Source: Bacteroidota bacterium (GTDB taxonomy: Bacteria > Bacteroidota > Bacteroidia > Palsa-965). Taken from it: DNA of 64,000 bases. Positions 5,543 through 30,014 of the stretch are shown here, piece after piece. Where the stretch lies: contig JAAFIA010000004.1 in NCBI GenBank assembly GCA_013298545.1, positions 26,832 through 90,831 of the forward strand. The letters run 5' to 3'. The translations under genes and the position numbers were made by a program. The notes under the pieces were generated by a model, which saw nothing but the letters and a program-made list of their open reading frames with translations, was not told the origin of the DNA and ran no database searches. Each line of letters opens with the position of its first letter. Within the stretch, counting starts at the first letter, position 1.

Positions 5543-8500
5543 TTAGTAGATTAAAACGCGACGAACCGTTTCCTGTTTGGAATTGGTTAAGCGAATCAAA
5601 AATGTTCCTGATCCGAAAGGAGTGAGGTCAAGTTGTTGGTTGTAGCGTCCGTTAAATTGTGTGAGTGTTTCGGCATAAATTTCACGACCGAGTGCGTCGC
5701 AAATACTTAACACATAATCGTCATTGGTTTGTACTTCGAACGCAAGTTGGAATTGGCCGTTGCTTGGATTTGGTGCAATGACAAAAAATCCGGCGGCTTC
5801 GTTTGGTGGAACGCCATTGACGAGCGTGGCTTGCGATTCGCCACCCGTACATCCAGAAGAGGTAAATGTAGCAACGCTGTACATCCCAACGTTTAATGCA
5901 GTATAGTTTTGCGATGTTGCTCCGGCAATGGGTGTGCCGTTGAAATACCATTGGTATTGCGGTGCGGCGGGCGAACAGGTGAGCATAAATCCATTAACCA
6001 AAACGGTTGGCATTTGCATCGGTGGTAACACAATCAACATGCGGGCACTAGACGCGGTACATCCATTGGTATCGGTTCCCGTTACCGAATAGGTTGTTGT
6101 TCCGTAAGGCCAAACGAGCGCAGAGTCATTGGCTGCGGTGTTGGTGTAGATGGATGGATTCCAGGTGTATTGCAAATTTTGATTGCTACAAGTAACCCAT
6201 GTTGTGTCGCCAAAACAAATAGAGGTAGCACTAGTAACCGAAAATCCCGGTAGGGGATTTACACGAATTTCAACAGAATCGGAGGAAGAACATCCGAATA
6301 CATCGGTTGTGGTTAAGACAAATATTTGTGTTCCGGCTTGTTGTGCAATAAGTGTTGGATTTTGAATGGTGGCATGGTCTAACCCTGTTGTTGGCGACCA
6401 AGAATAAGTTGCTGCACCAGTGCCGCTAAGTGTTATAAAACCGCTGTTGCATAAACTGGTATCTGCTCCAGCATTTACATTGGGTGCAGCAGCAACGGTG
6501 ATGGTTTGCGCAAGCGTATCGTTGCCGTTTGCATTCGAGACAATGAGCGTAACGGTGTACGTTCCAGCAGCGGTATAATTTACAACCGGATTTTGCGAAG
6601 TTGATGTATTCGGTGTTGCGCCAGGAAAATCCCAAGCCCATGCTGTTGCAGCAGGAGCAGATAGATCCGTAAACGACGCGTTACCATTTTGACAAACAGT
6701 TGCAGGTGCCGCAAATGCTGCGGTTGGCGGCAATGATGTTGATCCGCTGATGTTGATGTTATCGAGATAAATGAATTGGCCGTGATGTCCGCGATTTCTA
6801 AAAACAACCATCACGCTTGTTTGTCCGGCATAAGCATTGAGGTTGATGGTTTCGGTACGCCATTGGTTGTTGGTTGGCGTAAAGAGCGATGTTTGATCGG
6901 GTGTGGTAGCAAGTTGTGTTCCGCCTTTCAAAAACACGGAAGTAAATGTTGCGCCGCAATCGGAAGAGATCAATACTTCGATGGAGTCGCTGCGTGTAGC
7001 ATTGTAACGCGCATAAGCCACATCGAAATCGAGTTGAAGTGTTGTGTATCCCGTAAAATTAATTCCGGGAGAACGCAATTCGTCGCGGTCGTTGTTGACA
7101 ATGTTGTTGAAGTTGTTGAAATAAGCACACTCATTGCTGTTGTGCCCAACCGTGCTGCTGCGTTCCCAAACAAAATTCTGATTTCCGGCGTTGAGCATAC
7201 TCCATCCTGCTGGGACAAATGTTGTGGAAACAAAGCCTTCAACAACAGGAGGTGTCAACGCACCCGTAACCGTGATGTAGGTAAGTTTCGATTCAACAGC
7301 AGCACCAGCGATATTGGTCGCTGTAAGTGTTACAGGATAAACGCCGGGCGTGTTGTAAACAACAGTAGGATTTTGGAGCGATGATGTGCTTGGTGTTCCG
7401 CCAGGAAAATTCCAAGACCATGCCGTTGGAGCGAGTGTAGAAAGATCGGTAAACTGTACGGTTTGTCCGGGGCAAACCAACGTGTTATTTGCCGCGAAAT
7501 TGGCATCGGCAGTTAACAGCGAAAGATCAATCGGTGCTTCCCACACGCCACGCCCATAAGTCGATGCGCGCAAGGTCATGGTTGGCAGAAAAATTTTCAA
7601 ATCAGAAACGGGTGTATTCGGAAGACCTGTAAAAAAGGGTTGCCAAGAAGACATATTATCGTCGCGGTAATAAACACCCACATCGCATCCAACATACACG
7701 GCGTTATTTCCTGCACCTGGAATCGCTGCAACACAATTTGCAGGAAGGTTTGGCAATCCGTTGGAAATGTTGGTCCAAGAAATACCAGCATCGTGCGTTA
7801 CAAAAACATGGTAGTTGTTGTTATATCCAGACAGCGTAACCCAAAGCGTTTTCTCATCTTGCGGACTCACACCGATGCGCGAAATAGAAGAACCCGATGT
7901 TGAAATCGTACCTGTGATTGTTGTCCATGTAGCACCACCATTGCTCGATCTAAAAATCGCAGAACTGGAACAGGCGTAAATGTATTGTGTGTTTGACGGA
8001 GCAACTTCAATATCGACGAGTGTTGCGCCGTTTTGCAGTGTACCTAATTGTGTCCACGAGTTGCCTTGATTGGTTGATTTAAAAACCTGAGTATAGCCTG
8101 CATAAAGCGTATTGGCCACGAGTGGATCTTGACACCAAGGCGTAACCCAACCCGCATTGCCAGACAGGCCACTGGTAATTCCGGTCCAGTTATTTCCGCC
8201 ATTTGTAGAACGGTTGAAATCGCCATAATACAATTCGCCGTACATCACATTGTTGTTTGTGCGGTCGATGAAACAATCCATGCCATCGCCACCTAAAACT
8301 TCGGCGTACGAATTTCCACTTTTGAGATTTGTTCCGTTGTCTTGATGCCCCGTGATGAGTATGGTTGAGTTGCTTGCAGAAAGCCCCAAGCGATAGATTT
8401 GTGCAATACACATGTTGCTACTGATGTCAGCCCACGAATTTCCGTTGTTGGTTGTTTCAAATACACCACCATCGCAGGCCACAAAAATGGAAGAACCATT

Positions 8501-20455: not shown

Positions 20456-20636
20456 CTGGAACTTGGAGCTTGAGATTTGGAACTTGGAATCTGGAACTTG
20501 GAACTTGGAAACTGGAAACTGGAACTTGGAACTTGGAAACTGGAAACTGGAACTTGGAAACTGGAACTTGGAAACTGGAACTTGGAAACTGGAAACTGGA
20601 ACTTGGAAACTTGAAACTTGGAACTTGGAAACTTGA
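20456..20636. repeat. heptanucleotide microsatellite (GGAACTT / GGAAACT)n, ~25 units
   Basis: Uninterrupted run ggaacttggaacttggaaactggaaactgg... in the intergenic region between divergent cvpA (start 20263) and the 20655 CDS. A perfect 25-bp inverted copy (20351-20375, caagttccagattccaagttccaaa) matches 20476-20500. Confidence 0.9.
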
Positions 20637-22378: not shown

Positions 22379-23392
22379 ATGAAAGATCGCATCGATTCGC
22401 TGCTCGAAGAAGTAGAACAATTTACTCCCGATAACCAGGAAAAAGCGGAAAGTTTTCGCTTAAAATATTTGAGCCGCAAAGGACGCATTGCCGAACTGTT
22501 CGACGAGTTTAAAACCGTTGCACCAGAATTGAAGCGCGAAATCGGGCAGAAACTCAATGAACTTCAAACGAAAGCCAAAGAAAAATTTGAAGCGTTTCGC
22601 TCGCGCCACGACCATGACGCATCCGACTCAGAACAAACCGTTGATCTTTCGCTTCCTGCCGAATCGTTTGAAGGGTCGCGCCACCCGCTCATGCTCGTGC
22701 GCGAAGACATCATTTCTATTTTTGGTCGCTTAGGCTTTACCGTTGCTGACGGTCCTGAAATTGAAAACGATTGGCACAATTTTTCGGCGTTAAATTTCCC
22801 AGAAGAACATCCTGCCCGCGATATGCAGGACACGTTTTTCATTGATAAAGACATTGCGTTGCGTACACATACCTCAAGCGTTCAGGTGCGCATCATGGAA
22901 ACAACCAAGCCGCCGATTCGCATGATTATGCCCGGGCGTGTTTACCGCAACGAAGCCATTTCTGCCCGCGCACATTGCTTCTTTCATCAGGTAGAAGGAT
23001 TGTATGTTGACAAAGGCGTTTCATTTGCCGACATGAAGCAAACCTTGCTTTATTTCTCGCGCGAAATGTTTGGCGAAAAAACAGAAATTCGTTTGCGCCC
23101 TTCTTATTTTCCGTTCACAGAACCAAGTGCCGAAATGGATATTTCGTGTTCGATCTGCGGTGGAAGCGGATGCAATGTGTGTAAACATTCTGGCTGGGTC
23201 GAAATTCTCGGCTGCGGCATGGTCGATCCGCAAGTATTGAAAAACTGCGGGATCGATCCTGATGAGTATTCGGGCTTTGCATTTGGAATGGGCATCGAAC
23301 GCATTACCATGCTGAAATATGGTGTAAACGATTTGCGCTTGTATTCCGAAAACGATGTGCGTTTCCTCAACCAATTCAAACCGGTATGGTAA
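22379..23392 (+). CDS. pheS: phenylalanine--tRNA ligase alpha subunit
   Basis: N-terminal MKDRIDSLLEEV...FRLKYLSRKGRI. FPEEHPARDMQDTFF and class-II motifs (GRVYRNEAISARAH, GFAFGMGIERI). ATG at 22379; the track starts at TTG 22373. Confidence 0.9.
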   Translation: MKDRIDSLLEEVEQFTPDNQEKAESFRLKYLSRKGRIAELFDEFKTVAPELKREIGQKLNELQTKAKEKFEAFRSRHDHDASDSEQTVDLSLPAESFEGSRHPLMLVREDIISIFGRLGFTVADGPEIENDWHNFSALNFPEEHPARDMQDTFFIDKDIALRTHTSSVQVRIMETTKPPIRMIMPGRVYRNEAISARAHCFFHQVEGLYVDKGVSFADMKQTLLYFSREMFGEKTEIRLRPSYFPFTEPSAEMDISCSICGGSGCNVCKHSGWVEILGCGMVDPQVLKNCGIDPDEYSGFAFGMGIERITMLKYGVNDLRLYSENDVRFLNQFKPVW

Positions 23393-23703
23393 ATAACCGT
23401 TTGGCCGCGTTAGAAGAAATGCTTCGCGAATCGCCAAACGATGCGTTTGTACAGTATGCCATTGCGGTTGAATATGCCGCACAAAATCAAACGCAAGAAG
23501 CCATTCAACGCATCGAGCAATTAATCAGCAAGCAGCCCGATTACCTTGGCGCGTATTACAAACTCGGGAAATTATACGAAGAGACCAATCAACCCGACAA
23601 AGCGCTTGACGTTTTTAAACGTGGTGCCACACTTGCACAACACCAAGGAAATAAAAAAACGCTTGGCGAATTGAATGAAGCGATTTGGATGTTGGAAGAT
23701 TGA
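23386..23703 (+). CDS. small tetratricopeptide-repeat protein
   Basis: 105 aa with TPR-like helices (AFVQYAIAVEYAAQNQTQEAI...YYKLGKLYEETNQPDKALDVF). Overlaps the pheS stop by 7 bp. Confidence 0.65.
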   Translation: MVNNRLAALEEMLRESPNDAFVQYAIAVEYAAQNQTQEAIQRIEQLISKQPDYLGAYYKLGKLYEETNQPDKALDVFKRGATLAQHQGNKKTLGELNEAIWMLED

Positions 23704-23763
23704 AAAAAACACTATAAAAGTTGGCTTTTTATAATAAAAAAGATTACTTTTGTACTAACAATA

Positions 23764-23808
23764 CTCGCCACGCTTCCCATCAGAACAGCGCACCCGGGCG
23801 AGTTTTTT
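23764..23808 (+). terminator. putative intrinsic terminator after the pheS-TPR genes
   Basis: actcgcc...ggcgagt stem followed by ttttttatttttt. Confidence 0.5.
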
Positions 23809-23819
23809 ATTTTTAGGGT

Positions 23820-24783
23820 ATGACAAATTTTTCTAAGCAGCCAATATCTATTCCTGATCAAATAGCGCTTTTAAAATCAAGAGGGCTAATTATTCCTGAT
23901 GTAGCTCGTGCAGAACGTTATTTATCAAACATTAGCTATTACAGATTTAGTGGATATGCGAAATTTTTTCAAGTACAAAATGATCCCAACCACAACTTCA
24001 TTGTAGGGACAAGTTTTGATGATGTTTTAGCGTATTATTTATTTGATAGAAAATTGAGATTGCTTGTTTTTGATGCAATTGAACGTGTTGAAGTTAGTTT
24101 CAGGACAGCATTGGTCAATAACCTCTGTGTCGATCATGGTTGAACGTGTTGAAGTTAGTTTCAGGACAGCATTGGTCAATAACCTCTGTGTCGATCATGG
24201 TACAAATTGGTATGAGGAACAAAACCTATTTACAGATCCATTGCAATACAGCAAAAATCTAATCAAGCTGGTTTCAGAAATAGATCGCTCTGGAGAATAT
24301 TTCATTAAGCATTACAAAACATTCTACCAATCGCCGCAGAGACCTCCTGCATGGATGAGCTTAGAAATAGCTTCATTGGGCTTGCTATCTACAACATACC
24401 GAAACTTGAAAATGAGTCCTGCGAAAAAGAGGATAGCATTACAATTTGGAATAAAAGCTCCTTATGTTTTTGAAAGTTGGATGGAAAGTCTGACTTATGT
24501 TAGAAATGTATGTGCGCATCATGCCAGATTGTGGAATCGGAACCTGACTATTAAACCTCAATTACCCAAAACTACAACAAGCACTTTTTTAGTTAATACG
24601 TCAGCACCCAACACATCGCTATATACATGCTTATCCTGTCTTCTATATTTAAGAAAAAACAGTAATCCGAAAACAGAGTTAGCTAAACGTATTCGCCAAC
24701 TTTTTATAGAATACCCGAATGTTGATATACAAAAAATGGGCTTCTTGTCGGGATGGGAAAAAGAACCAATTTGGGCAACATAA
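23820..24783 (+). pseudogene. Abi_2-family (AbiD/AbiF-like) abortive-infection gene, disrupted by a 61-bp tandem duplication
   Basis: N-terminus MTNFSKQPISIPDQIALLKSRGLIIPD..ERYLSNISYYRFSGYAKFF is the classic Abi_2 (PF07751) start. The reading frame breaks at 24141, where the 61-bp segment tgaacgtgttgaag...gtcgatcatggt (24080-24140) is exactly repeated (24141-24201). The amino-acid stretch ERVEVSFRTALVNNLCVDHG therefore occurs in both halves. Removing one copy restores a single ~300-aa ORF. Confidence 0.75.
24080..24201 (+). repeat. perfect 61-bp direct tandem duplication inside the Abi_2 gene
   Basis: The two copies are identical base for base. 61 is not a multiple of 3, so the duplication causes a frameshift. 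Confidence 0.9.
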
Positions 24784-24795
24784 AAAACAAAAAAA

Positions 24796-24826
24796 CCGGA
24801 CAAAATTTTGTCCAGTTTTTTTGTTT
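24796..24826. terminator. bidirectional intrinsic terminator
   Basis: aaaaaa-ccggacaaaattttgtccag-ttttttt, a palindromic stem with A/T tracts on both sides, between the Abi gene and the convergent LuxR gene. Confidence 0.7.
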
Positions 24827-24842
24827 CGTAGAGAAAAGAAAC

Positions 24843-25588
24843 TTAAACCAATTGTTGCTCAACGGCAAAACGAACGAGACCAGCCGTGTTTTTGATGTTG
24901 AGTTTGTGCAACAAATTACGACGGTGTGTTTCAACCGTTGGAATACTGATGTTGAGTGCTGCCGCAATTTGCTTCGTGTTTTGCTCACGTGCAATGAGTT
25001 GAACAATCTGTAATTCGCGGCGGGTAATGCTACGAATGCGTTTGTCTTCGCGCGGATTAACGATGTCGCGAAGCATACGCTTCAACTCGTATTCCGTTTG
25101 TGTTTGTTGCGTTACGTCAAGTGCGACAAACAACAATTGATCAATCATGTTTGACTCATCGCGGCTAAATGGTGTAACTTGAAGCGAAAACGTGTGATCA
25201 TCGTCATACGCACTTGTCATGCGACAAAGCGCGCGGTACGGATCTTTGTTGCCCGCTCCAAACCAAGTGATCGCATCTTGCATGTGGCGACGCTCATCTT
25301 TTAAGAGCAAAGTGTTCATTGAACGGTTTCCGACTTTGATTACCTCAGAAATGCGGTAACCGAGTAAAGTTGTCAAACGATCATTTGCCCAAATTAACGA
25401 CTTACGTGTTGGATCTACGACAAGCAGAATGGCTGGAATACAATCCACCACACGTTCTACAATGGTTTGTTTGGACTGGCCGCCGCGGGTCAGGCGAGCG
25501 ATCGAATCGGAATTAGCCCGCAGGTGGACTAGTGCTTCGCTTGTTTCGGCCAATAACCGATCCAACGCTTCAGGTGATAGCGTACTCA
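24843..25588 (-). CDS. PAS-domain LuxR-family transcriptional regulator
   Basis: C-terminal HTH: TRRELQIVQLIAREQNTKQIAAALNISIPTVETHRRNLLHKLNIKN (LuxR/GerE). N-terminal PAS-like region. Start MSTLSPEAL at 25588; the track start at 25703 is over-extended. Confidence 0.8.
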
Positions 25589-28345: not shown

Positions 28346-28417
28346 AGTTGCAGGAAGGATTCGAACCTTCGGTTTCTGTTTTGCAGACAGATGCCTTAAC
28401 CACTTGGCGACAGCAAC
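28346..28417 (-). tRNA. tRNA-Cys (anticodon GCA)
   Basis: Reverse-complement gttgctg tc gcc aagtggttaa ggc a tctgt ctGCAaa acaga aacc gaagg ttcgaat ccttc ctgcaac t folds as a cloverleaf. Features: U8, A14, GG18-19, U33, A37, T-loop TTCGAAT, discriminator U73 (typical of tRNA-Cys), one U-U mismatch in the acceptor stem. CCA is not encoded. Confidence 0.8.
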
Positions 28418-29940: not shown

Positions 29941-30014
29941 AACTAAGCAGAATAAAGAAGAAACAAAAAACGCGCCTTGAAAGAGACGCGTTTTTTTGAG
30001 TAGAATGATTTTTT

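Follow-up and report, generated by a model that had tools for sequence, protein, structure and literature searches.

The window analysed here, a 64-kb stretch of contig JAAFIA010000004.1 from a Bacteroidota bacterium (GCA_013298545.1), carries an abortive-infection gene (abiF) preceded by a small structured RNA. We consider it probable that this is an AbiF/AbiFr cassette whose toxin gene was broken by a recent 61-bp tandem duplication, presumably a loss of function that slippage could revert. Based on its relatives, the locus is a disrupted type III toxin-antitoxin cassette, in which the protein would be a toxic RNase and the RNA its antitoxin.

The repeated unit at 24080-24140 recurs head to tail at 24141-24201 with zero mismatches, as seen by direct comparison. 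Tandem Repeats Finder, run on the window, reports the same repeat (period 61, 2.0 copies, 100% matches, no indels, span 24079-24201). Identity at period 61 covers 62 nt, of which 61 are the unit itself and one is a T of microhomology (24079/24140/24201); this leaves the ends of the duplication ambiguous by 1 nt. Mismatches in the flanks bound the repeat on both sides (24078 versus 24139 and 24141 versus 24202). The whole array is 123 bp long and lies between GATGCAA on the left and ACAAATTGG on the right; at the junction between the copies, GATCATGGT is followed directly by TGAACGTG. The two copies are:

24080-24140, + strand: first copy of the unit; codes for residues ~88-107 (C-terminal half of helix 66-106)
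24141-24201, + strand: second, identical copy; the extra, derived one, not present in the sister locus L006

A perfect tandem duplication inside the Abi gene was found in none of 85 homologous loci (528 kb scanned), and the window contains just one further perfect tandem repeat, a heptamer microsatellite array at ~20457-20635. The 61-bp repeat is therefore not attributable to chance.

Since 61 equals 3 x 20 + 1, the extra copy shifts the reading frame and brings a TGA into it at the junction; thus, the full-length toxin cannot be made. The stop codon is created by the junction itself (CAT GGT from the first copy, then TGA at 24141-24143). The same junction also creates an ATG at 24136 that overlaps the new TGA, and the stretch 24136-24143 (ATGGTTGA) has the geometry of translational coupling. 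The downstream open reading frame (ORF) extends over 24064-24783 and would yield 239 aa if started at a TTG and 215 aa if started at the junction ATG. Removing one copy in silico restores an uninterrupted ORF of 300 codons. The two fragments are:

23820-24143, + strand: N-terminal abiF fragment, residues 1-107, ending at the junction-made TGA; covers positions 1-68 of the Abi_2 profile
24136-24783, + strand: C-terminal abiF fragment, 215 aa in the +1 frame; covers positions 51-184 of the Abi_2 profile and carries the HEPN Rx4H motif

The 215-aa C-terminal ORF is identical to a protein already in the databases (P0001, an NCBI record on a 110.5-kb contig), which is the window's own. Programmed +1 frameshifting at GGT-TGA was considered and rejected by reasoning only: there is no prfB-type slippery codon, and tRNA-Gly cannot re-pair on GUU.

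The restored 300-aa protein matches the Pfam family Abi_2 (PF07751) over its whole length (profile positions 1-184 of 184, 192.5 bits against a cut-off of 25.6, E=1.1e-56), and the PADLOC AbiD model matches it at positions 4-273 of 277 (E=1e-75); a search of NCBIfam with the restored protein gave no match. An AlphaFold model of the restored protein, built with 40 homologues, has a mean confidence (pLDDT) of 93.5. Its sole significant match in the Protein Data Bank is 8VZ6_A, described as 'PbAbiF dimer bound to ncRNA' (TM 0.91, E=2.5e-22, 37% identity). Sequence and profile comparisons with PbAbiF 8VZ6 agree (E=4.5e-62 and E=8.5e-90, respectively). The catalytic motif lies in the second fragment:

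24502-24519, + strand: HEPN catalytic motif R-N-V-C-A-H, R208 to H213 of the restored protein

R208, N209, A212, H213 and H214 are invariant columns in the 40-sequence alignment, and the motif aligns to RNSCCH of PbAbiF 8VZ6. R208 and H213 correspond, by motif, to R202 and H207 of AbiFCd, mutation of which abolishes toxicity (PMC12373285). All 38 invariant columns of the family alignment are kept in the window's protein. In the AlphaFold model a core helix of 41 residues spans 66-106, and the duplicated residues 88-107 make up its C-terminal half. Homologues, whether close or distant, are all single polypeptides of ~298-300 aa, and the best locus in a scan of GTDB genomes is 51% identical.

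The earlier note on this DNA had claimed a perfect 61-bp tandem repeat, a frame broken exactly at the repeat and an Abi_2 identity for the gene once a copy is deleted; all of this is borne out by the repeat comparison, by the TGA at the junction and by the full-length profile match. Of the features that define AbiF/AbiFr systems, the locus has a HEPN fold with an Rx4-6H motif that is structurally PbAbiF-like, and also a cis-encoded structured noncoding RNA (ncRNA) immediately upstream on the same strand (see below). It lacks an intact toxin ORF, which makes it a disrupted member of the family.

Related genomes, to which the earlier note had pointed as a check, supply both an intact and an empty version of the locus. 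The intact version, L006, is a 148.8-kb metagenome contig from the Joint Genome Institute (JGI), found through P0121, a 90% cluster mate of P0001. Gene order is the same in the window and in L006: a peptidyl-prolyl isomerase (PPIase), pheS, a tetratricopeptide repeat (TPR) gene, the abiF RNA with abiF, a LuxR/GerE regulator and homoserine dehydrogenase. L006 has one copy of the 61-bp segment and an intact abiF ORF. A third locus, L088 (GCA_051649445.1, JBOFHC010000287.1, a metagenome-assembled genome from Bacteroidia), has the same neighbours and no cassette: at its empty site (2098-2170, compared with window 23704-24830) the TPR stop codon is separated from the LuxR gene by 71 bp that hold only the shared terminator. 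L088 is an outgroup, with 85-89% identity to the window and L006, versus 90-94% between the latter two.

23712-24783, + strand: abiF RNA and abiF cassette, ~1.07 kb, delimited by alignments with L006 and L088; boundaries A-rich and uncertain by ~15 nt

Since L088 is both an outgroup and empty, the ~1.07-kb cassette is an indel as judged from these alignments: the shared ancestor of the window and L006 acquired it, or else L088 lost it. On the same comparison, the duplication is derived in the window's lineage. Presence in the window and L006 with absence from L088 is the pattern of a mobile defence cassette, and a single-gene insertion between pheS/TPR and LuxR, as had been proposed from the sequence alone, fits it. 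The boundaries fall in A-rich runs (GAAAAAAA on the left, CAACATAAAAAACAAAAAAACC on the right). Comparison of the window with L088 at these boundaries revealed no integrase, recombinase, mobility genes or clear target-site duplication at the cassette. A defence island or mobile element as the setting was considered and discarded: the genes on either side have housekeeping roles (PPIase, pheS, homoserine dehydrogenase, peroxiredoxin), and neither an integrase nor a target-site duplication is seen.

Comparison with L006 also bears on selection. Between the window and L006, the restored abiF gene has a ratio of nonsynonymous to synonymous substitution rates (dN/dS) of 0.08 at a dS of 0.77, and coding DNA differs by 6-15%. 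Over 52 nt at 23757-23808, which contain the abiF RNA, identity is 100%, compared with differences at 27-48% of synonymous sites in the neighbouring genes and abiF; with a neutral difference as low as 0.25 per site, 52 nt would be free of differences with a probability of <3e-7. The low dN/dS and the identical RNA therefore mean that toxin and RNA were both under purifying selection until recently. The dS of abiF is about twice that of the flanking pheS, TPR, LuxR and PPIase genes (dS 0.33-0.44, window versus L006), for which differing codon usage, faster evolution or replacement of the toxin allele by recombination are possible explanations.

We conclude that the duplication is real and recent. 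It is recent because the copies are identical, the gene bears no other lesion and all invariant residues are kept. Copy identity by itself is weak for dating; zero differences in 61 bp give an estimated age below about half the time since the split from L006.

The second component of the cassette is the RNA. Its features, and those that flank it and the gene, are:

23745-23752, + strand: putative Bacteroidetes-type -7 promoter box, TACTTTTG, matching TAnnTTTG
23757-23808, + strand: 52-nt block identical to L006, comprising the abiF RNA, its 5' leader AACAATAC and most of the U-tract
23764-23803, + strand: abiF RNA hairpin, an AbiFr-type candidate antitoxin or attenuator, identified with RF03085 and by covariation
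23804-23809, + strand: U-tract after the hairpin, which with the outer stem may act as an intrinsic-terminator-like attenuator
24784-24827, no strand assigned: bidirectional intrinsic terminator with a 20-pair stem and T-runs on both strands, common to the TPR/abiF side and the convergent LuxR gene

The hairpin consists of an outer stem of 6-7 bp, a bulged A, an inner stem of 3-4 bp and a conserved 3' internal loop, CACCCG. The ATG of the toxin lies 11 nt past the U-tract and 17 nt past the end of the hairpin. TAnnTTTG is the Bacteroidetes promoter -7 consensus, and an exact TAnnTTTG occurs at the same fixed spacing 5' of the RNA in 48 of 70 matches to our covariance model (R1, described below). 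In a targeted 81-nt scan, the Rfam abiF model RF03085 aligns to the hairpin end to end (1-37 of 37, 24.5 bits, E=0.007). A wider Rfam scan (23300-25000, E<=10) missed the abiF RNA and gave only spurious matches of microRNA and small-RNA families to the downstream terminator. The hairpin is kept upstream of homologues that are only 37-51% identical to the window's protein, and homologous hairpins in L018 (53.8 bits), L074 (40.5 bits) and L046 (39.2 bits) score above the gathering score of RF03085.

R1 was built from 19 copies of the hairpin; the window is a seed sequence, so its score of 83 bits is not independent. A scan of 522 kb with R1 gave 71 matches, 69 of them in the fetched loci and all of these on the strand of the gene, where they coincide with hairpins just upstream of Abi_2 ORFs (~68 loci). 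In one locus a further copy lies a long way upstream of the gene. Compensatory changes were found in all 11 base pairs, with 98% of cells paired; when the 3' partner was slid by 1-3 columns, pairing fell to 31-41%, and 0 of 500 shuffles reached the observed values. The alignment was fitted to the model and this favours the structure somewhat, yet the slid controls and the many pair types (e.g. CG, UA, GC, UG and AU at one position) make the covariation robust. Thus, we identify the hairpin as the abiF RNA, partner of the toxin and probably its antitoxin. A second R1 match in the window (29961-30001, - strand, E=0.007) was rejected as an ordinary terminator between two genes.

The flanking terminators ascribed to the cassette in the earlier note did not hold up. 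The upstream one is instead the abiF RNA motif with a predicted Bacteroidetes-type promoter of its own, and the downstream one belongs to the TPR and LuxR neighbours, as its hairpin (24784-24827) is also found at the empty site in L088.

These observations suggest the following sequence of events, in which the RNase toxicity of the protein, the antitoxin role of the RNA, the use of promoter and terminator, the loss of function and its revertibility are our predictions. The cassette occupies the space between the stop codon of the small TPR gene and the terminator common to this gene and the convergent LuxR gene. A Bacteroidetes-type promoter could transcribe the abiF RNA hairpin of ~50 nt, ending in the U-tract, and read-through past the U-tract would produce an mRNA for the 300-aa toxin, a HEPN RNase of the AbiD/AbiF family (Abi_2). 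The toxin would presumably be a dimer, as in characterised relatives, the RNA binding and silencing each subunit. A 61-bp segment within the toxin gene was then duplicated head to tail in the window's lineage, probably by a sporadic accident of replication or illegitimate recombination, because the endpoints share only 1 nt of microhomology. We assume that the duplication means loss of function; the simplest explanation would be a loss-of-function mutation in a gene that is costly or toxic to carry. Adjacent 61-bp repeats could collapse to one copy by recA-independent slippage, and the allele would thus be revertible.

An independent assembly bears on whether the duplication is real. The Logan contig SRR9948924_187444 (911 bp) is identical to window 23198-24108 and ends at 24078+30. 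Logan assembly uses k=31, and this end is the break predicted for a k=31 unitig on entering a tandem repeat in which repetition starts at base 24079, because the (k-1)-mer that follows then has two predecessors. With a one-copy template no such branch arises, so the break at 24108 argues against an artefact, and the support that it lends to a real duplication is good, not conclusive. 

Several points weigh against a real and inactivating duplication in an AbiF/AbiFr cassette. The downstream Logan contig that would be expected (predicted to encode a 203-aa partial product from 24172) was not found, and a strain single-nucleotide polymorphism at 24109 would give the same break. The copy number was read from assembled sequence, and a break in a de Bruijn graph cannot tell a pure two-copy population from a mixed one. 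The 215-aa fragment, with its catalytic Rx4H motif, could be translated from the junction ATG, and the shared residues 88-107 may leave room for complementation between the fragments. Finally, the window's RNA falls below the gathering score of RF03085 (24.5 versus 37 bits) and is filed as a divergent variant of the motif; its homology to RF03085 is supported through the intermediates above the gathering score and by the shared structure.

Three other explanations have to be weighed. The first is a reversible ON/OFF (phase-variable) switch, which the earlier note had raised. In this reading both alleles are kept in the population: two-copy cells would avoid the cost of the toxin or self-killing, and one-copy slippage revertants would restore abortive-infection defence, a form of bet-hedging. 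The physical side of this proposal is plausible. Identical and directly adjacent copies are a substrate for recA-independent deletion, which work from the Lovett laboratory in E. coli reportedly described between short tandem repeats; precise reversion has precedents in other intragenic tandem duplications (phcA, cap3A), and the rest of the gene and the RNA is undamaged. AbiF toxins are also costly (PMC12373285). However, with endpoints that share 1 nt nothing promotes formation of the repeat, and switching to OFF would seldom happen. A collection of 15 billion proteins does not contain the exact one-copy protein; the only intact allele found is that of L006, which differs by 6-15% in DNA and is a plain gene without repeat in a sister lineage; and none of the 85 homologous loci shares the duplication. 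The conserved, recurrent, hypermutable repeat that marks phase-variable loci is thus missing here. There is no sign so far of an evolved or selected switch, and we regard this explanation as unlikely.

An assembly or sequencing artefact, with an intact one-copy abiF in the organism, is quite improbable in our judgement. The window does appear to come from a metagenome-type assembly, and an artefact would likewise yield perfectly identical copies. Against this, the 123-bp array is shorter than a typical short read and the assembler needs junction k-mers in the reads, the independent k=31 Logan assembly breaks at exactly the predicted base (24108), and the 64-kb window holds no second duplication of this kind. 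Among the origins first suggested for the repeat, a very recent event is therefore the best supported, and an artefact is disfavoured by the Logan break.

It is very improbable that the split gene still works, with fragments 1-107 and M-V plus 88-300, coupled at ATGGTTGA, assembling into an active or altered AbiF: the ATG at 24136 and the TGA at 24141-24143 lie in a classic coupling overlap of 8 nt, the 20-residue overlap leaves each fragment with a complete 88-107 and the C-terminal piece keeps Rx4H, but according to the model the fold is a compact single domain that the break interrupts within its core helix (41 residues, 66-106), and the uniformly single-chain homologues (~298-300 aa) offer no precedent in the family.

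More generally, we hold it to be improbable that the locus is either a population toggle driven by slippage, in which a type III toxin switches under a permanent RNA antitoxin, or a functional two-piece AbiF via ATGGTTGA. If a toggle were true, cells would hedge, heritably and reversibly, between bearing the cost of an abortive-infection toxin and being protected from phages.

The preferred reading, a recent duplication that probably inactivates the toxin gene, has consequences for annotation. Two short ORFs, one of them deposited as a 215-aa protein, would be one disrupted AbiF toxin gene, and the hairpin before the gene would be the RNA partner of the system rather than a generic terminator. 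The Rfam abiF model misses the Bacteroidota-type RNA that accompanies most close homologues of the window's protein. The locus would also be a natural example of a toxic defence gene that has been silenced with its antitoxin RNA perfectly conserved. Should both alleles prove to coexist, reversible silencing of a toxin could be tested here in an uncultured lineage of Bacteroidota. On present evidence the duplication is probably an ordinary, revertible mutation in a known kind of system.

Further observations concern the RNA family. An RF03085 scan of 15 homologous loci at E<=1 reported only 4 loci (5 hairpins), of which 3 were above the gathering score. RF03085 thus under-detects the Bacteroidota-type abiF RNA, of which R1 finds ~70 copies upstream of Abi_2 genes (L001-L086, alignment A5). 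Two different abiF-type hairpins occur in tandem upstream of the gene in some homologous loci, as they do in RCd22 of C. difficile; a single hairpin is present in the window and most loci. Where there are two, the second has the form ACACC..GCACACUUGG..GG and is nearer to the Rfam consensus. The tandem pairs are:

L047: 668-727 and 747-804
L063: 2843-2902 and 2930-2966
L071: 2851-2905 and 2933-2969
L073: 2229-2282 and 2311-2347
L081: 71-124, with a second hairpin downstream

Other features were noted in passing. The intergenic array at 20457-20635 consists of ~25 copies of the heptanucleotide TGGAACT (78% matches), is also readable as a 14-nt unit, and holds perfect sub-arrays with periods of 14, 21 and 28. 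Its position is kept in the sister contig L006 (~6498-6787), and it could be a length-variable spacer or an array of binding sites. The only Rfam match at the gathering score in the 64-kb window is a tRNA gene (28346-28417, - strand, 65.1 bits). An S-adenosylmethionine riboswitch (SAM-I/IV; 798-891, - strand, 55.5 bits, above the gathering score) was found on L011, an unrelated metagenome contig, ~370 nt upstream of its abiF cassette and on the opposite strand; the proximity is probably coincidental.

Known systems offer comparisons for the lesion, the RNA and the toxin. Intragenic tandem duplications in cap3A of Streptococcus pneumoniae are said to revert precisely, and in phcA and cap3A perfect duplications of tens of bp reportedly cause frameshifts, with both alleles and switching between them observed experimentally. 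A passage of a preprint (bioRxiv 10.1101/2023.04.27.538605) cites phcA of Ralstonia solanacearum as a precisely reverting intragenic tandem duplication. The window resembles these cases in its perfect head-to-tail intragenic duplication, in the frameshift and in that loss of one copy restores the gene; it differs in that both alleles were seen there and the two-copy allele only is seen here.

With RF03085 the window's RNA shares the hairpin architecture (1-37 of 37), the conserved CC-GCCA-GC ... GC-CA ... GGCG-GU and the place upstream of Abi_2 genes. In contrast to the Rfam motif, it represents a subclass of Bacteroidota type, in which the apical loop (UUCCCAUCAGAACA) is longer and the 3' internal loop reads CACCCG instead of CAAAUC.

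The closest parallel in layout is RCd22/abiFCd of the Clostridioides difficile prophage phi027, with a promoter, an abiF-motif RNA with a terminator, and the toxin expressed by read-through (PMC12373285). RCd22, encoded upstream, is a type III antitoxin with abiF motifs that neutralises the toxic AbiFCd (PMC12373285), and the Rx4H residues of AbiFCd are essential for toxicity. In this pair, as in PbAbiF/AbiFr, the protein is known to be a nuclease of ssRNA that its RNA neutralises by binding it directly. The window has the same layout, with no separate promoter between RNA and abiF. Unlike RCd22, which has two abiF motifs in ~100-130 nt, the window has one motif in a predicted RNA of ~50 nt. 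The hosts and settings also differ, RCd22/AbiFCd being in a prophage lysis module of a Bacillota host under a SigA promoter, whereas the window's cassette is chromosomal between housekeeping genes in a Bacteroidota host with a putative Bacteroidetes -7 promoter.

The closest structural parallel is PbAbiF-AbiFr (8VZ6), a type III toxin-antitoxin system proposed as the ancestor of Cas13. PbAbiF is a HEPN RNase, each monomer of which binds one ncRNA that blocks the RNase activity (reviewed in PMC12737573). Unlike in PbAbiF-AbiFr, the toxin ORF of the window is interrupted by the 61-bp duplication, and the likeness on the window's side comes from sequence and a predicted model, for the proteins only. 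Otherwise, both toxins are ~300-aa single-domain HEPN proteins that can be aligned end to end (37% identity, TM 0.91, root-mean-square deviation 2.1 A), and both systems have an RNxxxH motif and a structured RNA in cis immediately upstream.

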